Shown here piece by piece: positions 701-42,274 of a stretch of DNA of 64,000 nt. Numbering within the stretch: position 1 is the stretch's first letter; every line of letters begins with the position of its first letter. Both the position numbers and the translations under genes were made by a program. The stretch lies in NCBI GenBank assembly GCA_963666285.1, contig OY762711.1; one strand, given 5' to 3'. Under the pieces are notes generated by a model. It was given only the letters and a program-made list of their open reading frames with translations. It had not been told where the DNA came from and ran no database searches. The stretch is from Sedimentisphaerales bacterium. Its GTDB lineage: Bacteria; Planctomycetota; Phycisphaerae; Sedimentisphaerales; SM23-30.

Positions 701-870
701 AAAAACAGCGCAGTTTTGCATAGGGAGAAAACAGAAAATCAGAAAAATTTTAAAATTATATTTTCATTATTTCAAGCTAGTTACAGAATTTCGGGTTGGT
801 TGAAAAAGTAAAAAAATCAGCGCGATTTTTGCATGTCGTCCAAGAGTGTATGGAAAACCAAAAATAAGAA
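701..870 (+). promoter_or_regulatory. Putative promoter/operator element upstream of portal gene (copy 1)
   Basis: Two AAAA(W)CAGCGC..TTTT boxes (701-720, 811-833) followed by TCCAA; aligns without gaps to 41920-42089. Confidence 0.6.
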
Positions 871-913: not shown

Positions 914-2398
914 ATGAGAATGAGTTATGAATTTGATATTTTTGAAGGAGGCCTGGATGAAGGTTATGTCGAATGGCTGACGGGCGACGAATACATTTCT
1001 CGGGCGATCAGATTTGAGAAGTTATGGAATTATTATGAGAATCCGACTACCACATCAATAGCGGGCAATAATTCAGGGTCAGGCCGGACATATCAGCAAT
1101 GGCAGGAATATGGATTGCCGCTGCGTATAACCGGTATCAGCCGCAGCTTCTGGGGCGGTTTAGAAAGTGGTGAGAATAACGGCAGGATAGCTCGCAAGGA
1201 AGTTGTAGTCGAGAACGATATCGCCTGGCGAATCGATACGATAGTAGATTTTCTATTTGGCAGGAAGTTTTCGATAACCTCTCGGGCAAGTGATCCAGAC
1301 CGGGCCGGCGAGATCGAGCGAGTTTTGAACGCGATATTTGAAGCAAACGGCGGTATGCAATTTTTTCAGCAACTGGCACTGATGGGCAGTATCTATGGTT
1401 TTGTTGATGTAATAGTCCGGACTGATAAGCTGTTTGCCGAACAGCAAGAGATATCAACAAGTTTGGAAAGATGTGCAGATAAGGTGGTACTGGAAATAAT
1501 AGAGCCGGTAAGGAGTTTGCCTGTATTGAATGAGAATGATTATCGTCGGATAGAATATTATATCCAGCATTATTATAAACAGCATAACGAGCTGGGGCAA
1601 AGCACGGTCGGTGGGATAGGGACGGTTGATGGAAGGGGAAATGTCGGCAGCGGTCCGAGAGAAAGTAGATGTGTGGAGATAATCTCGGACCAATACTGGC
1701 AGCGATACGAGGACGGCGATCTGACGGCACAGGGAAGAAATGTTTTGGGATGTATGCCCATCGTGCATATTCAGAATCTGCCGATCCCGTATCGTTATGA
1801 AGGCAAGAGTGACGTAGAGCCGCTGGTGCCGTTGCAGGATGAGCTGAATACGCGTTTGAGCGATCGAGCAAGCCGGATAACAATGCAGAGTTTTAAGATG
1901 TACCTTGCAAAGGGGATAAGTAACTTTGACCAGCTGGATATCGGGCCTGGTACAATGTGGAATACAGAGAACCCAAACGCAGCGGTAGAGGAGTTTGGCG
2001 GAGACGAATCGTGTCCATCGGAGGCAGAGCACATAAGCCAGGTACGTGACGCTTTGGAGAAGTCGAGCGGTGTGGCTGCTATTGCTGCTGGAATGTTAAG
2101 AGGTCGTATTGGTAATCTCACAAGTGCGGTTGCATTGAAAATAACACTTATGGGTATACTGGCAAAGAACCAGAGAAAGCGTATGTGTTATGGCAAAGGG
2201 ATAGCCGAGATGTCAAAACTGATTTTAGATGCATTAACGAAAAGCGGTGTGTTTGAAACAGATCCATCAGAGCGTGAGATTGATATTCACTGGCCGAATC
2301 CACTGCCGGAAAATGTAACGGAGATTCTGCAGGAAGCGAAGATGAAAATGGAACTTGGTATTGATAAGGAGCAGGTGTTGAAGGAGCTTGGATATTGA
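914..2398 (+). CDS. Phage portal protein (SPP1 gp6-like)
   Basis: 494 aa; VDFLFG, PIVHIQN, GKSDVEPLVPLQDELN, IHWPNPLPEN motifs typical of gp6-like portals; AAGGAG RBS. Confidence 0.85.
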   Translation: MRMSYEFDIFEGGLDEGYVEWLTGDEYISRAIRFEKLWNYYENPTTTSIAGNNSGSGRTYQQWQEYGLPLRITGISRSFWGGLESGENNGRIARKEVVVENDIAWRIDTIVDFLFGRKFSITSRASDPDRAGEIERVLNAIFEANGGMQFFQQLALMGSIYGFVDVIVRTDKLFAEQQEISTSLERCADKVVLEIIEPVRSLPVLNENDYRRIEYYIQHYYKQHNELGQSTVGGIGTVDGRGNVGSGPRESRCVEIISDQYWQRYEDGDLTAQGRNVLGCMPIVHIQNLPIPYRYEGKSDVEPLVPLQDELNTRLSDRASRITMQSFKMYLAKGISNFDQLDIGPGTMWNTENPNAAVEEFGGDESCPSEAEHISQVRDALEKSSGVAAIAAGMLRGRIGNLTSAVALKITLMGILAKNQRKRMCYGKGIAEMSKLILDALTKSGVFETDPSEREIDIHWPNPLPENVTEILQEAKMKMELGIDKEQVLKELGY

Positions 2399-2688: not shown

Positions 2689-3117
2689 ATGGAAGAAGAA
2701 ATTGATAGTGTAGTCGGTGATGTTGGTTCATCAGATGTTGATGACAGCTTACAGGAGCTGGAAGGAATGAAAGAGGCCCTGGCAGAGGTTCAAGCAGAGT
2801 TGGATAAGGTTCGTTTTGAAAAGTCACTTGCAGTAGAACTTACTCGTGCCGGGGCGATAGATGTAGAAGCGGCGATAAAATTAGCCGGGGAAGGAGAAGA
2901 AGTGAAAGAGATTGTTGATTCGCTTAGAAATAGCAAGCCGTATTTGTTTGATCGAAAAGTAGTAGGTGAGATAGGCGGCGCGATAACAGCGAGTGTAAAA
3001 GTTCGTAAGAGTGTCGGGCTGGATAAGCTAAGTGAAGCAGCTAAGAGGGCGAAAAAGACCGGCAGACGCCGTGACCTCTTTGAATATCTCAAGCTACGTA
3101 GAAGTCTGAGAAAGTGA
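2689..3117 (+). CDS. Phage capsid scaffolding protein (GP20-like)
   Basis: Acidic N-terminus, coiled coil, AGAIDVEAAIKL and SKPYLF motifs, basic C-terminal helix; lies between portal and capsid genes. Confidence 0.75.
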   Translation: MEEEIDSVVGDVGSSDVDDSLQELEGMKEALAEVQAELDKVRFEKSLAVELTRAGAIDVEAAIKLAGEGEEVKEIVDSLRNSKPYLFDRKVVGEIGGAITASVKVRKSVGLDKLSEAAKRAKKTGRRRDLFEYLKLRRSLRK

Positions 3118-3160: not shown

Positions 3161-4587
3161 GTAAACTTTCGCACTTTTTGAGGGTTAAAATTTGAAAATA
3201 TAAACAAAAAAATATCGGCGATCCGATGTCTTTAATGATTGATAACAATAGGACACGGAGGCCGATATGTACTATCAATATTATTCGACATGGACGCAAT
3301 TTATTCAACAATTTTTTCCAATTTTTACAGAGCCGGGGGCACAAATCTTCTGCCGGGTGGTAATTGGTTGGATATTGTGCACTACTCGCCGCACGATAAC
3401 AGGCATAATACCCTACGCAGACCCGCTGGGCGAACGAGCTCACGATGCATATCATCGTTTCTTTCCAGATTGCCGCTGGTCTCTGAGCCGGATGTGGAAG
3501 ATGCTCACCCTGATTATGGTTCAAAGATTCTGTCCCAAAGGAACAATCACTCTGTCCATGGACGACACCCTGTTTCATCGAAGCGGTCCAAAAGTCCATG
3601 GAGCCGGATTCTGGAGAGATGCCGTTCGTTCTACCAAGAAAAGAATAGTATATGCCTGGGGTTTGAATTTGGTAGTAACGTGTCTGCAAATTCAACCATC
3701 TTGGGGTGGCGAACCTCTGGCACTGCCGGTCAATATGCGGTTGCATCGCAAAGGAGAAGAATCCTTGATTGAACTGGCGGTACAAATCATTAATGAAATA
3801 TGCCAATGGCTTCCAAACAGGCGTATAAGGCTTGTAGCAGACGGGTTTTATGCTACTCTGGCTGGAAAGAATCTTGAGAATGTTACCATTATCTCTCGAA
3901 TCAGGCGTAATGCCGATCTGTTTGAGCTGCCGCCTAAAGTTAAAGAGAAAACCCGTGGCAGACCTCGCTGTAGAGGGCAAAAACTGGCTAAGTTGGAAAA
4001 AATGGCTGCCCATATCAGAAATTGGAGAACAGTTGAGTTTAGTCAGAGAGGTACGATTATTGAAAGGCTGGTTTATACTCGTATTGCTCTCTGGTATAAG
4101 GTAACTCGCAAACCAATCCTTGTTGTTATATGTAGAGACCCTGAAGGTAAGGAAAAAGATGACTTTTTCTTTACGACAGATATTACTATGGCGCCTGAGG
4201 AAGTTTTGACCTGTTATGCCGATCGCTGGGCTATTGAAGATACGTTCAAGAACACTAAACAGCTGCTCGGTGTTCAACAGCTGCAGACATATAAGGGCAA
4301 AGGACCAGAAAGAGCCGCTGGTCTTGGACTCTGGCTGTACTCGATGGTCTGGTTGAGGTATCTGACCAAGAAACCCAATGAACAATACTTCTTTGTTCAG
4401 CCATGGTATCAACACAAAGAGACTCCGAGCTTCGCCGATGCTATCGCTGACCTCCGAAGGGAACTTTGGAGTGAAAGAATTAAATATATGTTCGGTAATT
4501 CGGCCGTTCATGATAAAAAATATACGTTTCTGCTGGATGCTCTGGCTCCAGCGGCTTAAATACACTATAAAAAATGCGAAAGTTTAC
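3161..4587 (+). mobile_element. Insertion sequence, IS701-like, 1427 bp
   Basis: Terminal IRs GTAAACTTTCGCA(C/T)TTTT; 5-bp target duplication GGTTT at 3156-3160 and 4588-4592. Confidence 0.9.
3267..4559 (+). CDS. DDE transposase (IS701-like)
   Basis: SMDDT, VADGFY, YADRWAIEDTFKNTKQ DDE signature; fills the IR-bounded element. Confidence 0.9.
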   Translation: MYYQYYSTWTQFIQQFFPIFTEPGAQIFCRVVIGWILCTTRRTITGIIPYADPLGERAHDAYHRFFPDCRWSLSRMWKMLTLIMVQRFCPKGTITLSMDDTLFHRSGPKVHGAGFWRDAVRSTKKRIVYAWGLNLVVTCLQIQPSWGGEPLALPVNMRLHRKGEESLIELAVQIINEICQWLPNRRIRLVADGFYATLAGKNLENVTIISRIRRNADLFELPPKVKEKTRGRPRCRGQKLAKLEKMAAHIRNWRTVEFSQRGTIIERLVYTRIALWYKVTRKPILVVICRDPEGKEKDDFFFTTDITMAPEEVLTCYADRWAIEDTFKNTKQLLGVQQLQTYKGKGPERAAGLGLWLYSMVWLRYLTKKPNEQYFFVQPWYQHKETPSFADAIADLRRELWSERIKYMFGNSAVHDKKYTFLLDALAPAA

Positions 4588-4627: not shown

Positions 4628-5782
4628 ATGAGTTTTACAGGAAAAGCAACTTATTCGGCCGGCGTTGAATTGCCGGAATTGTGTGAAGATGTATCAGATA
4701 TTGTTGGTATTGTGTCGCCGTATGAAACTCCGCTGCTGGACTTGCTGGGCGATCCCGGACGTGACGCGATAAGTGTTTATCATGAATGGCTGGAAGATTC
4801 TTTATTGAGCAACAGGGGTGTGATTAATGATGACAATATTGTTGCTCCCGAGGCGGAAATTATGTTTGCTGTTGATGACGGCAGCAAATTCAGAGTTGGT
4901 GATCAGATCCAGGTAGAAGGCAGTAGTGAGTTGATACTGGTCACCGGCGTTAGCGTCAACACTTTGACAGTAGCTCGCGGTTATTCCGGTACCACTGCAG
5001 AAGCGATAGCAGATGGTGACGTGATTAATATTCTGGGTAATGCGGCACTGGAAGGTGGTGAAAAAGGTGAGGCGCGATTTACCAATCGTTTGCGAAAGGG
5101 CAACTATACCCAGATTTTGTCAGCTGCGGTTGAAGTATCCGGAAGTGACATGTCAGCGAATCAGCTGGGCCTGGCAAATGAGATGGACTATCAGAAGCAG
5201 GAACGTCTGCGTGAGCTGCTCAGAGACCTAGAGAACATCGTAATTAACGGCGGACAGGCGGCATCTAATCCGCAGGGCAGCAGTTCCGTTCGCCGCACAA
5301 TGAACGGTATCGTAAAACAGATAACAACAAATGCGTACAAGGTTGGCGATAGCGGATTGCCGTCAGGTGATACACTGGACGAGGCAAAGCTGAACTATGT
5401 ATTACGCAGTATCTGGGAGAGTAGTAATGCCGGGATAGACACAATAGTTGTAAACGGATACCAGAAGCGTCAGATCAATTCTCTCCTGGACGGTTCCCGT
5501 ATATATAATAGTGAGGACCGCAAATACAGTTCGCTGGTGAGTTATTATGAAAGTGACTTTGGTTTGTGTCGAGTTGTTCTGAGCCGATGGGTGCCAAGAG
5601 ATATGGTACTGTTTCTCGATAGTTCCCGTATTAATGTATTGCCTTTAGCGGGCAGGAGTTTTCACTTTAAGCCGCTGGCAAGTACCGGCGACTATGAGTG
5701 CGGTCAGCTAATAGGAGAATATACACTTGAGTTCAAGAATGAGCAGGCCCACGGATATCTAAGAGGATTGACGGTCAGCTGA
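4628..5782 (+). CDS. Major capsid protein (SU10/DUF5309-type, HK97-like)
   Basis: EDVSDIV..VSPYETP, HEWLED, NYTQI, RRTMNGI, YESDFG, IGEYTLEFKNEQAHG motifs; follows portal and scaffold; strong RBS. Confidence 0.85.
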   Translation: MSFTGKATYSAGVELPELCEDVSDIVGIVSPYETPLLDLLGDPGRDAISVYHEWLEDSLLSNRGVINDDNIVAPEAEIMFAVDDGSKFRVGDQIQVEGSSELILVTGVSVNTLTVARGYSGTTAEAIADGDVINILGNAALEGGEKGEARFTNRLRKGNYTQILSAAVEVSGSDMSANQLGLANEMDYQKQERLRELLRDLENIVINGGQAASNPQGSSSVRRTMNGIVKQITTNAYKVGDSGLPSGDTLDEAKLNYVLRSIWESSNAGIDTIVVNGYQKRQINSLLDGSRIYNSEDRKYSSLVSYYESDFGLCRVVLSRWVPRDMVLFLDSSRINVLPLAGRSFHFKPLASTGDYECGQLIGEYTLEFKNEQAHGYLRGLTVS

Positions 5783-5877: not shown

Positions 5878-6510
5878 ATGAGATTATGTAATGATATCGA
5901 TATATGTAAGTGGGAGTCGGCGTTGTATTCGGACGCAGTCAGTTCGGATAGGTATGTCTGTTCCGGTAACGGCGGCGTTATTTCAGGCGGCCAGTTTAGT
6001 GTGACCGGGATAGACTTTTTACAATCCGGAGTGGAGCCGGGTTTTATGCTTCGCTGCTGGAATGAGCTGGCGATGGTTGAGTTATGTTGTGAGATAGTGG
6101 AGGTTCAATCGAGCGTCAGTTTGTCAGTTTCATCAGTTCGGCCAAGCGGTGTAACCGAACTATGGCCGCCGGGCGATTACAGCAATTTGAATTTTGCGGT
6201 TATTTCGTATTCCCCGGTGATAGATGAGGTGAGTTATAGTATTATGTCTCGTTTGCGTGAGATAAATTCGATCGATGATCTGGTTGAAAGCAGGTCGCTC
6301 AGACTGCAATGTGTATTTTTGGTGATAGCATCGGTTTATGCGTCGATAGCAAAGACATCGGACGACGACTTTTACTGGCACAAGTCTGAGTATTATCGCA
6401 AGCAGTATGATATGGAGCAGAGCAGGTTCGCAGCAGATATTGATACCGATGGTGACGGTGAAATTGACAGGACTATATGTGGTAATATTATATCTCTGAA
6501 GCGGAAATGA
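5878..6510 (+). CDS. Putative head-completion / head-tail adaptor-like protein
   Basis: Directly after capsid gene; helical C-half with YWHKSEYY and terminal DIDTDGDGEID motif reminiscent of phage adaptor proteins; AAGGA RBS. Confidence 0.5.
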   Translation: MRLCNDIDICKWESALYSDAVSSDRYVCSGNGGVISGGQFSVTGIDFLQSGVEPGFMLRCWNELAMVELCCEIVEVQSSVSLSVSSVRPSGVTELWPPGDYSNLNFAVISYSPVIDEVSYSIMSRLREINSIDDLVESRSLRLQCVFLVIASVYASIAKTSDDDFYWHKSEYYRKQYDMEQSRFAADIDTDGDGEIDRTICGNIISLKRK

Positions 6511-11544: not shown

Positions 11545-12126
11545 GAATAAGTCAGAAGAAGAGATTTTTTAGTTCTTGTAAAGAAATCTCCAGGTTTTTT
11601 TAGTCTATTTAATTTTGATTTTCTGTAAATCACTTATATATGTTCTTTTACAAATGAATAGAGAAAATGGCATTTTTCTTTTAAGTACGTGATTTTTTTT
11701 GGTCGATTATACCAAAAATGCTATAATATATGTATGGCATAGAGGCATAATTGTCAGGATGAAGATCTGCTTAAAGGCTTTGAAAGGTTTTCAAAGAAGT
11801 GGACTTTGTTAGAAAAGGTTTCAAGCCTTCGTGTGAGGAAGGTTCAAAAAAGTAGGAAAAGGCATATACACATAGTAAATAAAGCCTGATTATGCGGTTA
11901 GCAGTTCTGTTTGTTCGCAGTAAAAAGCTTAAACCGCTCAGGAAGTAAATGTATAATATTATGTAAAATTCTCTCGGAGGAAGGGAGGAGGTAAATGCCC
12001 GGCAAAAAATGAAACGATTTTCTGTATATCTGGCCCGATCTGGTCTTGAGGCGACTGTATCCGCGGTGGATAACAGTAAATTGTTTATTATTTTATTTTA
12101 ATCTGTTCACTTAGGAGTATTTTAAG

Positions 12127-12834
12127 ATGAGAAATTTAATTGCTATTTTGGCTGTATTGGCTATGGGCGTAAGTGCTATGGCAGATGTAACTTGGGTAGA
12201 AGATAATACTACTGCAAAAACATCTGTAATGACATGGACATCATCAGAACCTCTGGCAGGTATGGCACTGGAACTGGCTGTTGCTGATGGTACAAGTTTG
12301 ACATCGGTTGCTATGACTGGTTTCAATGTATTTATCGACCAGGCTTACAGCACACCAGGTTTCACAACTCTGGAATCTGTTAACACAAATCCTGCAGCTA
12401 ATGCTGACGCTCCAGGCGCTATCACAGATCTGACAGGCACTTTCGCAGTTTGCGGCGGCAGCCTGACTGAAGATCACGCCGGTGTTTCTACCGGTACTAT
12501 CGTTCTGACAGCAGATGTTAGCACTACAGTTGATATCACTGCTGACGAAACACGTGGTGGTGCTGTTGCTATGGGTGGCGCTGCTGTTGCAGTAACTCCA
12601 GTTACAGCTACAATTACAGCTGGTCCGACATGTTGGAGTTATGAATACTTCACAAGCGGTGACGCTGATGGTGATGGCGATGTTGACACTGATGACTGGC
12701 CAATCTTCCGTGATGCATTTGGTACAGCTGAAGGTGATGCTGCTTATAATCCATGTGCTGACTTTGATAAAGATGGTGATGTTGACACTGATGACTGGCC
12801 AACATTCCGTGATAACTTTGGTAAGACTTTCTAA
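12127..12834 (+). CDS. Secreted protein with C-terminal dockerin-like domain (copy A)
   Basis: Signal peptide; beta-rich domain; two Ca-binding repeats DADGDGDVDTDDW and DFDKDGDVDTDDW. Confidence 0.85.
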   Translation: MRNLIAILAVLAMGVSAMADVTWVEDNTTAKTSVMTWTSSEPLAGMALELAVADGTSLTSVAMTGFNVFIDQAYSTPGFTTLESVNTNPAANADAPGAITDLTGTFAVCGGSLTEDHAGVSTGTIVLTADVSTTVDITADETRGGAVAMGGAAVAVTPVTATITAGPTCWSYEYFTSGDADGDGDVDTDDWPIFRDAFGTAEGDAAYNPCADFDKDGDVDTDDWPTFRDNFGKTF

Positions 12835-12926
12835 TTTTTGTTAATTAGTAGTTGTTAAATTTTGTAAATTTGTAAATCAATTTAATTAAGACGTTTTATT
12901 TAACTTAATTTCTAAGGAGAAATGTT

Positions 12927-13544
12927 ATGAAGAAGTTTTTTGCTTTTGTTTTGGTTATGGCTATGTCTACAGTAGTATTTGCTAGTGCAGCAAATCCAGT
13001 AGTAAGCCTTGTAATTCCTGGTGAAACAGCAGTTGATGGTATTTACACATTGCCTGCAGGCGTGTATGACGTTGAATTGGTAGTAGGAAGAAATGCTTAT
13101 ATGTATGGCGAAACTCCTTATCCAGCATTCGATGGATACCAGGTATCAAGTATTGCTGCTAGCATGGAAACAACCAACTGTTCTCTTCAGATTACTGATG
13201 ATGGCCTTCCATTCACAACAGACGTTATCATGTATGGTGATGGAGTAGCACCTGGTGCTAATAACAGCTTAAGCCTGATTCAGGCAGTATCTCTGTCTGA
13301 TATGGGTCCAGATTTCGTTATCGCTTACAACTTCCAGGTTGTATACGATGGCGTTGGAACAGCAGTAGTTGATCTGGGTCTTGTTGGTACATCACAATAT
13401 CGTGCTGCTGCTGCTAGCACAGGTGCTGGTTACGAAGGCATGATTGAAGCAAGTCTGGGCGACTTGGTAATCGTTCCAGAGCCAATGACAATGTCTCTGC
13501 TGGGTCTTGGCGGCCTGGTAGCAGTTCGTCGTCGTCGTGCTTAA
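12927..13544 (+). CDS. PEP-CTERM sorting-domain protein (copy A)
   Basis: Signal peptide; C-terminal VPEPMTMSLLGLGGLVAVRRRRA. Confidence 0.92.
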   Translation: MKKFFAFVLVMAMSTVVFASAANPVVSLVIPGETAVDGIYTLPAGVYDVELVVGRNAYMYGETPYPAFDGYQVSSIAASMETTNCSLQITDDGLPFTTDVIMYGDGVAPGANNSLSLIQAVSLSDMGPDFVIAYNFQVVYDGVGTAVVDLGLVGTSQYRAAAASTGAGYEGMIEASLGDLVIVPEPMTMSLLGLGGLVAVRRRRA

Positions 13545-13605
13545 TTTAAGCTGACAAATGATGGCTATAGCCAAAAGTATCTTATAGATACTTAAAAAAA
13601 CAATT

Positions 13606-13642
13606 AACGGCGTGGTTCGTAGTATGATCCACGCCGTTTTTT
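13606..13642 (+). terminator. Intrinsic terminator
   Basis: AACGGCGTGG/CCACGCCGTT stem plus T-run. Confidence 0.8.
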
Positions 13643-13896
13643 ATTTTAAAATATGATATGGTCCATAACTGTCTAATTGCCTTACGGCGTGTTTGCGTGA
13701 TCTGTGGACATAATATTAACTGGAATTGTGTTGTTATTAGGTTGCTGATTTGGTAAATTAAATATTGAGTGACGGCTGTGCAGCCAAAAAAAGTGTAAAG
13801 ATTGTGTAGTCGCTGTCGCTCGCGTTATCAATTTGGTTTCAACATAATATAAATTGTTTGTTTAATTTGAGTTTCTTTTCTATAAGGAGTGTTAGA

Positions 13897-14604
13897 ATGG
13901 GTAAAATGCTGATTTCTCTATTTGTATTGGCTATGAGTGTATGTGCGTTTGCGGATGTTACCTGGTCTGAGGATAATAGTACTGCAGGTACTTCAATTAT
14001 AACCTGGACATCTTCTGAGCCGCTGGCCGGCCTGGCACTGGAACTGACAGTTATGAGTGGCGAATTGGATTCTGTTGAAATGACCGGTTTTAATGTATAT
14101 ATTGATCAGGCTTACAGTACACCGGGATTTACAAATCTTGAAGAAGTAAACACCAACCCGGCAGCTAATGCTGATGCACCGGGAGATATAACTGATCTGA
14201 CTGGCAAATTCACGATATGCGGCGGCAGCCTGACAGAAGACCATGCCGGTGTTTCAACTGGGACAATTACTTTGACAGCTTCAGTTGAAATAACAGTTGA
14301 TATTGTTGCTGACGAAACTCGTGGTGGGGCAGTTTCTATTGGAGGTGAATCTGTAGATGTAATTCCGGTTACAGCTACAATAGCTGTTATTTTGGAATCT
14401 TGCTGGAATTATCCATACTTCACAAATGGTGATGCAGATGGTGATGGCGATGTTGACACAGATGACTGGCCGATCTTCCGTGACGCATTTGGTACAGCGG
14501 AAGGAGATGCTGCTTACAGTCCATGTGCTGATTTCGACAAAGATGGTGATGTTGACACGGATGACTGGCCAACATTCCGTGATAACTTTGGTAAAAGTTT
14601 CTAA
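13897..14604 (+). CDS. Secreted protein with C-terminal dockerin-like domain (copy B)
   Basis: Paralog of 12127-12834; AAGGAG RBS before ATG 13897. Confidence 0.85.
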   Translation: MGKMLISLFVLAMSVCAFADVTWSEDNSTAGTSIITWTSSEPLAGLALELTVMSGELDSVEMTGFNVYIDQAYSTPGFTNLEEVNTNPAANADAPGDITDLTGKFTICGGSLTEDHAGVSTGTITLTASVEITVDIVADETRGGAVSIGGESVDVIPVTATIAVILESCWNYPYFTNGDADGDGDVDTDDWPIFRDAFGTAEGDAAYSPCADFDKDGDVDTDDWPTFRDNFGKSF

Positions 14605-14647
14605 TTAACGACTTATTATATTATTGATTTTTAAGGAGATTATGGTT

Positions 14648-15274
14648 ATGAAGAATTTTTTTGCTTTTGTTTTTGTTATGACTATGTCTACAATAGCATT
14701 TGCTCATGCAGCATATCCAGTTGTAAGTCTTGAAATTACAGGTGAAACAGCTGAAGCCGATGGGTGGTATTATTTTGGAGCGGGTGTTTATGATCTTGAA
14801 CTTGTAGTAGGCAGAAATTCATATGTGTATGGCGAAACTCCTTATCCGGCATTTGATGGATATCAGGTATCAAGTCTTGCTATAAATATTACAACATCTA
14901 ACTGCTATCTTCAGGTGACAGATGATGGTTTGGATTTTACCGAAGATGTTATCAAATATGGTGCAGGTGTTACTGCCGGTGTTAATAATAGTTTGGAATT
15001 GATTCAGGCGGTATCTCTATCGGATATGGGGCCAGGCTTTGTTATAGCTTATAATTTCCAGCTTGTATGGGATGGTATTGGGCTGCCTCTTGTAGATATG
15101 AGTCTTGCCGGCCTTTCTGAATATCGTGAATATTCTAAAGGTACGGGTGCTGAATATATTGCTATGACAGAAGACTGCCTTGGTGACTTGATAGTCATAC
15201 CTGAGCCAATGACCATGTTTATGCTGGGCTTTGGCGGGTTGTTAGCATTACGTCGGCGACGACAGTATAAATAA
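14648..15274 (+). CDS. PEP-CTERM sorting-domain protein (copy B)
   Basis: Paralog of 12927-13544; IPEPMTMFMLGFGGLLALRRRRQYK. Confidence 0.92.
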   Translation: MKNFFAFVFVMTMSTIAFAHAAYPVVSLEITGETAEADGWYYFGAGVYDLELVVGRNSYVYGETPYPAFDGYQVSSLAINITTSNCYLQVTDDGLDFTEDVIKYGAGVTAGVNNSLELIQAVSLSDMGPGFVIAYNFQLVWDGIGLPLVDMSLAGLSEYREYSKGTGAEYIAMTEDCLGDLIVIPEPMTMFMLGFGGLLALRRRRQYK

Positions 15275-39231: not shown

Positions 39232-39360
39232 TTATCTTGCCCAACGATATTGGCAATCCACTCTACAATTAGCTTTACCCTAATTTTGCAAAAGTTCAGT
39301 TAATAAAACACGAGCAGTAGCGAGTTACCTTATATATTATTGGTTATCGATGGTTCTCTT

Positions 39361-39474
39361 TTAGGCGTTAGCCGTTTAAAACAAGCCGTCCGCGAATGCG
39401 GACACATCAACTCTTCCCTCTTACTTTTTACCTTTTACCTCTCCCCTCTCGCTTCTAACTCTTACCATCCTTCA
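39361..39474. repeat. Composite intergenic repeat; homologous parts at 41589-41672 and 41020-41056
   Basis: AGGCGT.AGCCGTTTAAAA.AAG...GACACATCAA.TCTT plus CTCTTACTTTTTACC heptamer tract. Confidence 0.7.
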
Positions 39475-39627
39475 TTAACTTCACTTCCTTCATGGTCAAA
39501 AAATATTCTTTGCGAGCTTTGCGAGAGACAAAAATACAAAACACATTCATCTCGCAAACCATGTCTGGTCCTGTGATAAGTTGTCACATTATAGATTTAA
39601 TGTTTTAACAAATAACAGGAGACAACA

Positions 39628-40047
39628 ATGTTGGTAAGTAAACGAACTTATAATCGCTACAGCGAAGCCTTTAAATTACAGGTGGTAAATGATCTTGAAT
39701 CTGGTAAGCTAAGCAGTATTTATGAGGCTAATTCCCGCTATGGGATTTCTGGTACAACAACAGTAAAGAGTTGGCTAAGAAAATATGGCCGTAACCATTT
39801 GATACCAAAGGTGATACGCGTGGAAAAACTAGATGAACAAGATCATGTAAAGAAGTTAGAATCAGAGATTAAGCAGCTTAAAGAAGCGTTAGCAGACAGC
39901 CATATAGAGAATATTGTAAGTGAAGCCAGGTTTCAGGTTATTTGTAAAGAATACGGGCTGGATCCCGAGGAGTATAAAAAAAAAGTCGATACCAAACGGT
40001 TCAACAAGCGTCCGAGGCAACCGTTGAAAAGAAAGAGGAAAAAATAG
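39628..40047 (+). CDS. IS3 OrfA (HTH)
   Basis: RYSEAFKLQVV HTH and leucine zipper; A9G slippery site at 39976-39985. Confidence 0.9.
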   Translation: MLVSKRTYNRYSEAFKLQVVNDLESGKLSSIYEANSRYGISGTTTVKSWLRKYGRNHLIPKVIRVEKLDEQDHVKKLESEIKQLKEALADSHIENIVSEARFQVICKEYGLDPEEYKKKVDTKRFNKRPRQPLKRKRKK

Positions 40048-40076
40048 CGATAACTTCCTTATGCAAAGCTGTTGGC

Positions 40077-40862
40077 ATGAGTCGTCAGAATTATTATAAA
40101 TCACATAAAGTTCGGCGCAGGCGGCACTATGAAAAAGACCTGATAATATCTTTGGCCAGGCTGGAAAGATCATTGCAGCCTGAGATGGGTTGCAGAAAGG
40201 TTTTGAAGCGTATAAAGCCCAAACTGGCAAAAGCCGGTATTAGTATAGGGCGAGATAGATTTTATGAAACGATGTCAGAAGCAGATATGTTGATAGAGCG
40301 TAAAAAGCGAAGTGTGACAACGACAGACAGTCGTCATAACTTTAAGACTTATAAGAATATACTGAAAGATGAAGAGCTTACAGGAGCCAATCAGGCCCTG
40401 GTAAGTGATATAACGTACATATATACAGATGAAGGATTTATGTATCTGTCGTTGATAATGGATGCATTTAGTCGCAAGATAGTTGGCTATGACTGTAGTG
40501 ATAGTTTGGAAGCAGAAGGTTGTTTGCGTGCATTAACAAAGGCGATAAAGCAATTGCCCAAAGGTAGTAATACGATACATCATTCAGATCGTGGCAGTCA
40601 GTATTGCTGCCATAGATATATAGATAAGCTTAAAAGAAATGGGCTGCGAGTTAGTATGACCGAAGATAATCATTGTTATGAGAATGCCCAGGCCGAGAGG
40701 TTAAACGGTATATTGAAGCACGAGTATGGATTGAAGAATACGTTTAAGAAAAAAGCTCATGTTCATGCTGCGGTTAAACAGGCGATAGAACTGTATAATA
40801 CCTGTCGTCCACATTTTGCTTTGGGATATCGTGTGCCTGAGGAAGTGCATATGGCGGCGTGA
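40077..40862 (+). CDS. IS3 OrfB (integrase-like DDE), fused to OrfA by -1 frameshift
   Basis: VSDITY, HHSDRGSQY, ENAQAERLNGILKHE; -1 frame is open back to the A9G site. Confidence 0.92.
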   Translation: MSRQNYYKSHKVRRRRHYEKDLIISLARLERSLQPEMGCRKVLKRIKPKLAKAGISIGRDRFYETMSEADMLIERKKRSVTTTDSRHNFKTYKNILKDEELTGANQALVSDITYIYTDEGFMYLSLIMDAFSRKIVGYDCSDSLEAEGCLRALTKAIKQLPKGSNTIHHSDRGSQYCCHRYIDKLKRNGLRVSMTEDNHCYENAQAERLNGILKHEYGLKNTFKKKAHVHAAVKQAIELYNTCRPHFALGYRVPEEVHMAA

Positions 40863-40979
40863 TATATTCCTCCGTTCCGGTCGCCCTTCGGGCTCCCTGC
40901 ACTACGGAATATATCATCAAAAAACAATAGTAAATAGAAACGGAAAGTGACAACTTTAAATCAGGACTTGACACCAACT

Positions 40980-41672
40980 TTTTTAATTCTGAATTTTTAA
41001 TTTTTAATTTCCCCCCTCCCTCCTCGCTTCTGACTTCTAACTCTTCTCATCCTTCAGGTGCCGCAATTTTAAAATAAACTTCCATACGCATCAGCTTTAA
41101 AATAAGTTGTGAGCGACAGCGAATTATTCCTGATGTCAACGTACATCAGGACACATCCTTTACACTTTGATGACGCTCCGCGGCATCTGGTCTGCCCACA
41201 ATCCAAAAATAACAACTTACGTAAATCTCGGTAAATTTCTCCCTCCGCCACACCTCTTTCCCGACCTACTAGTCAATTATCGTTAACCCACCCCACCTAT
41301 GCGTCAGCATATAAAATTAGCTCCGCCGCTAGGCGACACCTTCACATCATTGGACTTGTTCAATGATGTGCCAGAGTGCGAAGCACGTATTTCCTCTTCA
41401 CTGGCCGCTGGTCGCTGATAGCTCGCTGCTGATTGCCTGTTCTAATCTCTAGCAGCTTGGCTGCTCGCTCGCTGCTGTTATCTGGTAGCTCTTGATTTTT
41501 TATCCTTTATCCTTTATCCTTCAGAAACGCATTTCATTTCTTTCTTTATCAGTGTGCATCTGCGTCCATCCGTGGTTCTCTTTTTTTTAAGGCGTCAGCC
41601 GTTTAAAATAAGGTCCTGTACCGTATGGTACAAGACACATCAATTCTTACCTTTTACCTCTTACTTTTTACC
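40980..41672. repeat. Cluster of short palindromes and heptamer tandem repeats (REP-like debris)
   Basis: TTTTAAT and TTTATCC tracts; CACATCATTG/CAATGATGTG hairpin at 41343-41370; no credible CDS. Confidence 0.55.
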
Positions 41673-41919
41673 TGCTTTCCCATCTCCGCTTCGTTCCCGT
41701 CTGTATACCGCCGCACCCATTTAACGTCCCGCCGTATATTGCCCGCTCGTTGCCGTTCGGCCCCGTTCAAATCCGTACCCCTTTTCGCCGCCGTCCACCC
41801 GCCGCGCTGCCCCGTATATATGCCGCACTCCCTCCGTCCCCCATCAATCAGCCGCGAGCGGTAGCGAGCAACCTTCCCTAGCACCTGAAGCCTGATCCCT
41901 GGCCCCTGATTTTCTCGAA

Positions 41920-42089
41920 AAAATCACCGCGTTTTTACAACCACTAAATCGCGAAAATCTAAATTTTCCAAAATATTTATCCCGCTTATCCCCAACACCT
42001 TACAATTTTTCGGGCCAACCATCCCGCCCAAAAAATCAGCGCACTTTCGACATACCATCCAACAGTAGAGAGCTGACAAAAAATGAGAA
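41920..42089 (+). promoter_or_regulatory. Second copy of the portal-upstream element
   Basis: Gapless alignment with 701-870 at constant offset 41219. Confidence 0.6.
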
Positions 42090-42124
42090 CCGACAAAAAT
42101 CAGCTCTCTATAAAACTTAACAAC

Positions 42125-42166
42125 GACGAAAACTTCGTCTTAAACATAAATTTTGCTCTTTGAAAA
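42125..42166 (+). promoter_or_regulatory. boxB/boxA-like antitermination signal
   Basis: GACGAA-AAC-TTCGTC hairpin then TGCTCTTTGAAAA. Confidence 0.4.
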
Positions 42167-42274
42167 ATTGAATATTAAAACGATTTGTCACGGGCCTTTC
42201 CGTTCAGAATGAGTTCGCTCATTCGGTCTATGCGATATCATCGCATACCATGAGCAAGCTTGGCTTGCCCGGGT

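Follow-up and report, generated by a model that had tools for sequence, protein, structure and literature searches.

The window, by which we mean the whole stretch of 64,000 nucleotides analysed here, opens with a phage-like head module (at 64.9 kb of contig C1) in which a non-coding element of 170 bp precedes the genes for the portal, scaffolding and major capsid proteins (Table 1). A second element of the same kind lies further along, at the end of a non-coding repeat. The portal gene nearly always occurs once per genome among the 41 genomes of the order that were compared, which are designated G000 for the genome of the window and by other G numbers for its relatives. The conserved gene that follows the capsid gene has no match in Pfam, PHROG or NCBIfam, and is likely to encode a head completion protein.

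Table 1. Features of the head module and of the two copies of the upstream element in the window
Feature	Position	Strand	Remarks
Copy A, box 1 (upstream GCGCA box), predicted activator site	701..720	+	about -153 to -134 from the predicted start
Copy A, T-tract and AAnnnnTTR, IHF-like site	757..786	+	fixed distance to the core
Copy A, box 2 (GCGC box overlapping the -35/spacer region)	812..833	+	palindrome in copy A only
Copy A, -10-like hexamer AAGAGT and purine-rich segment	842..853	+	order-wide motif AGGGTaGAgGG
Portal gene (SPP1 gp6-like)	914..2398	+	single copy in 32/41 genomes of the order
Head scaffolding protein gene	2689..3117	+
Major capsid protein gene (SU10_MCP)	4628..5782	+	61-73% identity, seven relatives' loci checked
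Conserved 210-aa gene after the capsid gene	5878..6510	+	30-46% identity in 5/7 head loci
Mosaic non-coding repeat body	40980..41919	+	short hairpins and 7-mer tracts, upstream of copy B
Copy B, box 1	41920..41939	+
Copy B, IHF-like site	41976..42005	+	gapless register with 757-786
Copy B, box 2	42031..42052	+	core AAAATCAGCGCACTTT almost unchanged across 30 copies
Copy B, -10-like hexamer AACAGT and AGAGAG	42061..42072	+
ORF-less tail, fixed right end of the repeat	42065..42212	+	hairpins 42065-42111 and 42125-42139

Two further sequences lie within the head operon. A rod-like hairpin of 170 bp (2504-2674; folding z -8.2) between the portal and scaffold genes has more than 50 near-full-length copies in the genome at 71-92% identity, looks like a MITE and was not seen at this place among the orthologous loci displayed. 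An IS701-like element (DDE_5; 3161-4587), present in seven copies of 99.9-100% identity, separates the scaffold and capsid genes; it leaves both of them and the capsid RBS intact and may be polar on the operon. A transposase is also found within the capsid gene of G020. In G025, G036 and G020 (L181 1194-6005, L183 and L184) the operon extends by five to seven genes, several of them common, which are candidates for a tail of unknown type; the six that were scanned have no PHROG match, and no clear counterpart was found in G000 except for one prophage match.

The packaging genes lie in a separate single-copy module among host genes at C1:5.593-5.598 Mb, which contains the genes for TerL, a TerS-like protein, a GNAT, an ABC ATPase and a 139-aa regulator, together with a divergent gene for a CI-like repressor. 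TerL is present in 34 of the 41 genomes and the regulator in 29. Family and fold scans assign two HTHs to the regulator, one sigma-4-like and one Q/late-activator-like; its look-alikes in the Atlas are mostly from Planctomycetota, and Foldseek returned no match at E ≤ 0.001. The sole HU/IHF-family gene of G000 is nearer to IHF (E 2e-18) than to HU (1e-7), below both cut-offs. Sequence identity declines with kinship across the order. A PF03237 terminase at C1:5.296 Mb was rejected as a member of the module, since it forms part of a distinct prophage that lacks the upstream element, and a portal search in the genome contig collection gave no confirmed match. Measured against the GTA definition in the accessible text of PMC9662315, the particle proteins are derived from caudoviricetes (matches to portal, scaffold, capsid and TerL) and the genes are, judged from sequence alone, endogenised over several loci, so that the two modules, known here from their genes, represent a candidate GTA-like system. 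The short ABC ATPase and GNAT genes lie between the regulator and terS (L046 9245-10365; G000:C1:5,595,244-5,596,364), likewise in G025, and a role in DNA modification is possible.

The stretch upstream of the portal gene (701-870, copy A) had been noted to align without gaps to 41920-42089 (copy B). The entire alignment holds 95 identities in 170 positions, and the partial counts made by hand (15/20, 7/7, 12/15, 29/40 and 9/10) were exact on recount. The value lies far above that of shuffled sequences, the control proposed at the time (mean 46.6, sd 5.5), whose maximum was 68 among 20,000 base shuffles and 71 for 5-nt block shuffles. Elsewhere in the genome the top gapless match to copy A was 82, over 12.25 million other positions with 33 copies masked. 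The similarity is thus confirmed, and it is larger than first described, the two stretches being 2 of 33 full or near-full copies that a two-sequence profile detects on C1 (E 6e-39 to 6e-15; next match 0.22). A broader profile over G000 found no others. Apart from the portal copy, there are 30 copies that end a mosaic repeat, one truncated copy (C1:3,076,846) and one decayed copy beside an IS (C1:1,419,799).

In the 30 repeat copies the element, hereafter the unit, is the fixed right end of a non-coding mosaic of about 1.2 kb (0.6-1.5 kb) with ragged left ends; the example in the window spans 40980-42212, and pairwise identity across the unit is 76-96%. Contigs of public assemblies (three runs from two studies, one run maybe the source of the assembly itself) agree in that the repeat is multi-copy and its flank single-copy. 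The tie between this repeat family and the portal-upstream unit is new here, and a portal-type unit explains what anchors the family. No integrase, terminal repeats, att sites or target duplication were seen at the copies, and no ORF was found in the dispersed ones; a minus-strand frame of 76 aa (41654-41884) was rejected as a gene, being broken or shifted in many copies and without a Pfam match. When copy B was searched by BLAST, neither the 40 relatives nor the genus gave a match outside G000, and the exact box pattern of G000 was not found in five relatives, viral contigs or metagenome contigs. Along the genome the copies are spaced as at random (CV 1.05, against 0.95 for random), 14 of the 33 are directed with the replication fork, and in 16 of the 33 the next long ORF is on the same strand. 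Since spacing, strand and replichore are all random, the dispersed copies do not serve adjacent host genes. The proposal that the element marks the regulon of the head module is borne out in so far as the unit precedes the portal gene; copy B, however, ends an ORF-less repeat of 30 copies and precedes no regulon gene, and the profile scan found no copy in G000 before any phage gene besides the portal. Two observations concern the repeat itself. Six copies (e.g. 422587, 713180 and 781183) carry a second allele of box 1, CATCTCG, which resembles the portal-promoter box of G001 and G002 and hints at exchange between lineages or an old polymorphism. Furthermore, an IS3-family element (39628-40862) splits a piece of the mosaic repeat at 39351-39455 from the remainder (39351-40975 in all), and the same element lies inside at least two other repeat copies.

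The unit consists of two GCGCA boxes separated by about 110 bp, an IHF-like site that lies between the boxes, and a core, ANRGT-RGAGG, that resembles a -10 element. The two related boxes of each copy had been placed about 110 bp apart by eye, and the measured spacing is 112 bp in both copy A and copy B. The palindrome described at 812-830 does have perfect 7-bp arms in copy A; copy B and the putative promoters of the orthologs lack it, and it is therefore incidental. In the hexamer of G000, A is kept at position 2 in 31 of 31 copies and T at position 6 in 30 of 31, while positions 3 and 4 vary; a kept A at 2 and T at 6 with variable 3-4 is the pattern expected of a -10 element, though G at 5 is fixed as well. 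A scan with the sigma-70 consensus called no plus-strand site at 842, and the hexamer varies among units (AAGGGT, AATAGT, TTTAAT, ATATAT). We infer a transcription start near 854, within the range of 845-870 given by the original prediction. Its alternative-sigma promoter, read as sigma-54, did not withstand inspection: the sigma-54 consensus has GG at -24 and GC at -12, ten bases apart, and no conserved GG stands at the required place on either strand in units from G000 copies, portal orthologs and HNH loci. Dispersed copies vary less where the unit is fixed elsewhere, with 6 of 46 columns variable where four distant units agree and 39 of 122 variable otherwise (Fisher p 0.018; by rank, rho 0.17, p 0.03, 30 copies). 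This outgroup-only test, used instead of the partly circular comparison with the family consensus (rho 0.38), gives a hint of continuing constraint on the dispersed copies.

The unit is conserved upstream of portal orthologs across the whole order, as had been anticipated, and the geometry kept there is consistent with the protein-bound architecture of fixed spacing that had been proposed. A profile built solely on the 30 repeat copies gives 23.9 bits for the portal-upstream DNA of G003 and 13.5 for that of G000, against at most 0.7 in 50 shuffles; the majority of the distant portal-upstream orthologs are not recognised by it. De novo searches of 28 orthologous regions, with G000 left out, returned AGGGTaGAgGGa (LL 43.5; far-upstream controls 27-30) and the GCGCA box (LL 36), while a search with a simple background gave only A/T tracts. 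In 26 regions anchored by hand on the core (the other four of 30 had no settable anchor or were near-duplicates), the T-tract/AAnnnnTTR motif begins, in 24 of them, at -82 to -88 relative to the hexamer (LL 162; local shuffles 80-96). The plain IHF consensus, which is that of E. coli, is not enriched (7.13 versus 6.96 in shuffles). In family f1 the GCGCA boxes are at about -134/-23, and in f2, f4 and f7 they are at about -124/-14, an offset of one helical turn with the ~110 bp between boxes kept in both; the distance between box repeats peaks at 111-113 bp, and in most orthologs the pair is 109-113 bp apart.

The strict core pattern was found in 7 of 30 portal regions, in none of 30 TerL-upstream regions (1.4 kb each, often covering terS) and in none of 16 recovered regulator regions; a profile scan of the G000 packaging module found no unit either. 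At portal, HNH and initiator loci alike the unit is oriented into a gene start within ~35-560 bp, always in the sense direction. Viral contigs yielded neither the f2-type pattern nor the portal protein. Profile scanning, which had been expected to expose further phage genes under the same element, revealed the 33 copies in this genome; other scans located units before HNH-AP2 and initiator genes in relatives, but none was found ahead of terminase. Taken as a whole, the earlier interpretation is partly supported.

A core-pattern scan of the 41 genomes located extra unit copies in relatives, many of them before a gene encoding HNH_3 and AP2 domains. HNH-AP2 matches number 16 in G025, 15 in G036, 11 in G039 and 7 each in G032 and G030, and none was found in G000; the GxxExxY family was likewise not found in G000, where ten four-helix-bundle matches lie away from units. 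Nineteen HNH loci had sufficient sequence upstream and a portal region in their own genome; 12 of these match the portal unit of that genome best, with scores of 63-208 against 26-43 for reverse-strand controls; the remaining seven are at background (four in G030 with weak protein matches, two in G033 and one in G038), and a raw own-genome-best count of 21/28 includes chance ranks. Eight further loci comprise six that match their own portal unit and two without, and of four more in G039 three have both boxes and one lacks the unit. G025 has 13 units: one at the portal, ten with an HNH-AP2 gene 77-333 bp downstream and two at contig ends. In metagenomes, a pattern of the f2-type core derived from G025, G030 and G032 units gave 34 matches, many of which seem to come from the same organisms; 29 (26 deduplicated) precede an HNH-AP2 gene in sense, two precede a portal gene, one another ORF, and two are too short.

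Within genomes the mean identity is 52% for the HNH proteins and 75% for the non-coding units (47 pairs), while between genomes the means are 47% and 55% (143 pairs); 9 of 29 HNH loci gave no unit under the extraction rule of this comparison. Several HNH copies contain stops, and one locus is common to G025 and G032 with the same gene downstream. The packaging operon of G025 holds ParB, an initiator and an HNH-AP2 gene that lacks a unit, and is a likely source of both kinds of cargo. Across lineages, the dispersed extra copies range from 0 to 32 and the cargo is a nuclease, an origin or nothing. The genomes G001, G002 and G031 yielded no full dispersed unit; the extra matches in G001 and G031 were rejected as a coding chance match and short repeats, and an extra unit in G020 stops at the contig end. 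In many unrelated genomes, tandem tracts of 7-mers and 9-mers, together with short palindromes, crowd right behind the unit (L007, L009, L017, L021, L024, L025, L028 and HNH loci), and they also occur beside the G000 packaging module; no paper on them was found in the part of the literature that was accessible.

The second type of cargo is a phage-like replication initiator. In G037, all four lambda-O-like initiator copies carry the portal core and middle site of their own genome together with iteron-like repeats, and one copy has lost the front of the gene and kept the iterons. The single extra unit of G003 precedes four short repeats and a pure A/T tract of 40 bases, a neighbourhood which is like an origin remnant. 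Other initiator-like genes, in G001, G004, G019, G024, G025, G027 and G000, are without a unit. The recurrence of the capsid-gene unit before HNH-AP2 and initiator cargo in relatives is new here. As a separate observation, the predicted recognition helix and the iteron-like repeats of the G037 initiators (L237 696-1433, L242 and L244) differ together, as if origin specificity had diversified among the copies. G000 has an island with a small integrase-like gene and an O-like initiator (C1:2,679,668-2,682,230), which has iteron-like repeats of its own and no unit.

What the sequence establishes is the geometry of the unit, its fixed position at the portal, its recurrence before cargo genes, its sense orientation and the genome-specific match. 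From these, the 170-bp element is probably the promoter of the portal-scaffold-capsid operon, and, granted that, the dispersed copies would on balance be selfish cassettes. The explanation as a whole, to which we assign a probability of about 0.45, is that the element is the late promoter of a GTA-like system, dependent on an activator and IHF, and that scattered selfish cassettes of phage origin have captured it repeatedly. Once repression by the CI-like protein of the distant packaging module ceases, the two-HTH regulator of 139 aa would bind both boxes, an IHF-like protein would bend the DNA between them, and RNA polymerase would start near 854 and transcribe the head genes. A cassette bearing the same unit would be switched on exactly in the cells that build particles, and the nickase or replication origin that it carries would work on the DNA around the cassette, generating free ends or local amplification that draw headful packaging towards it. 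In G000, the cargo gene would have been lost, leaving 31 ORF-less copies as non-autonomous remnants, which recombination would keep similar and which would retain some constraint where protein binds.

As to which protein would bind the boxes, G000 and G003 share boxes with TerS proteins only 34% identical, while the boxes of G003 differ from those of G001 and G002 with TerS at 54-55%. After correction for portal identity, the similarity of boxes among 11 genomes tracks the second HTH of the regulator (partial r 0.35, p 0.018) and not the HTH of TerS (r 0.03, p 0.44). In 21 genomes both regulator HTHs correlate with the boxes (0.43 and 0.26), the first not being significant in the 11. These Mantel-type correlations are among 12 tests and remove kinship only in part, and they lend weak support to the boxes tracking the second HTH of the regulator rather than TerS.

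The closest parallel is the GTA of Caulobacter crescentus, whose promoter, in the accessible text of PMC11150451, has GafY at -123 to -113, IHF in between and GafZ between -10 and -35. The likeness includes the predicted far-upstream activator site (box 1 lies more than 100 bp from the predicted start), a putative IHF site and a second element in the -35/-10 region, and extends to a domesticated phage head cluster whose sigma-like and Q-like HTH regulator parts are encoded elsewhere under a repressor. The unit may work like a Caulobacter-type GTA promoter. In contrast to Caulobacter, both boxes here share their sequence, one 139-aa protein carries both HTHs, the terminase is in a separate module and the unit is multiplied on dispersed cassettes. 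In Bartonella, a prophage-derived run-off origin is linked to BaGTA and biases its content (accessible text of PMC11841831). The O-like initiators and iterons behind the unit in G037 would likewise be GTA-linked origins that could amplify local DNA and bias packaging; however, BaGTA has one origin, whereas here there are several, lineage-specific and mostly replaced by HNH-AP2 or nothing. The HNH-AP2 proteins combine an HNH nuclease with a DNA-binding domain (HNH_3 and AP2, in relatives only) like the free-standing homing endonucleases of phages, and one copy lies in the G025 packaging operon. Unlike those, they are chromosomal; several genomes have 7-16 of them at unrelated loci, mostly downstream of a copy of the putative host capsid promoter. 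PICI and PLE phage satellites are also small elements keyed to the late programme of a helper, but here the copies have ragged ends and high numbers, integrase, att sites and target duplication were not seen, and the role of helper falls to a domesticated system belonging to the host.

By definition, GTAs package DNA selflessly and at random, and selfish elements are not known to exploit them. If the favoured explanation is true, the cassettes are GTA cheats or a distributed, re-programmable steering of GTA content. Rather unlikely as it stands is the fuller notion of an undescribed class of GTA parasites: small cassettes in the chromosome that would copy the host capsid promoter, follow the drifting specificity of its activator, and rely on a nickase, a phage origin or the site alone to have the DNA around them packaged and spread, having arisen repeatedly within one order around an undescribed GTA family. 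A literature search over accessible titles and abstracts found no paper on this system or on GTA-promoter-bearing cassettes. The unit offers a handle in the form of a predicted start, two boxes, a named regulator and 33 sites.

The dispersed copies could instead serve the host, which is unlikely though the most serious of the alternatives. The nucleases and origins would then form a peripheral GTA regulon that fragments or amplifies the chromosome for packaging, and the 31 ORF-less copies of G000 would be decoys that titrate the activator and raise the threshold of lethal induction. The age of the HNH paralogs, which have diverged to 52% within genomes while their unit is up to date, agrees with such a role, as do the locus that G025 and G032 have in common, the persisting constraint on the G000 copies and the run-off origin tied to BaGTA (accessible text of PMC11841831). 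It is harder to reconcile with cargo and copy number that vary wildly by lineage, with stops in several HNH copies and with the random positions of the copies.

Quite unlikely is a pac- or cos-like packaging-initiation signal, in which TerS would bind the boxes on the IHF bend, terminase would cut near RGAGG, and any cassette carrying the unit would be packaged preferentially with no gene needed. Lambda cosB has R sites around an IHF site, and the direct-repeat boxes that flank an IHF-like bend are similar; moreover, the ORF-less copies of G000 multiply regardless of neighbours, strand, replichore and spacing, and the hexamer is a poor sigma-70 match. The TerS of this system retains its N-terminal helical region in the alignment, and lost DNA binding of TerS has been linked to random packaging (accessible text of PMC11841831). 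However, in contrast to cos and pac sites, which lie at or in the terminase genes, the unit was not found in the terminase regions scanned; it always points into a gene start, it has no conserved symmetric nick or cut site, and the sharing of boxes runs against TerS identity.

The tail behind the unit folds well into two hairpins (z -4.9) directly behind the predicted start, and relatives frequently have a hairpin at the equivalent place. The dispersed copies might then be genes for a two-hairpin RNA of ~110 nt, such as a packaging RNA, or for a peptide of 24-27 aa, co-induced with the capsid genes. This is very improbable, given that the tail stems show no compensatory changes in 372 cells, that Rfam returned no match, that the ATG is lost in 8 of 31 copies, and that the tail was not found in 40 relatives and is decayed in the copy at 1,419,799. 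A neutral origin, in which a repeat captured portal-upstream DNA once and spread functionless copies by gene conversion, would suit the patchwork polymorphism among the copies and their unbiased orientation and spacing, but is barely plausible when many lineages show the same capture, in each case of their own version and with cargo that acts on DNA, and when spacer lengths and boxes are kept while the spacer sequence drifts.

Elsewhere in the window, between the head module and copy B, a block of two genes ending in PEP-CTERM genes is duplicated in tandem at 72% (12077-15261).
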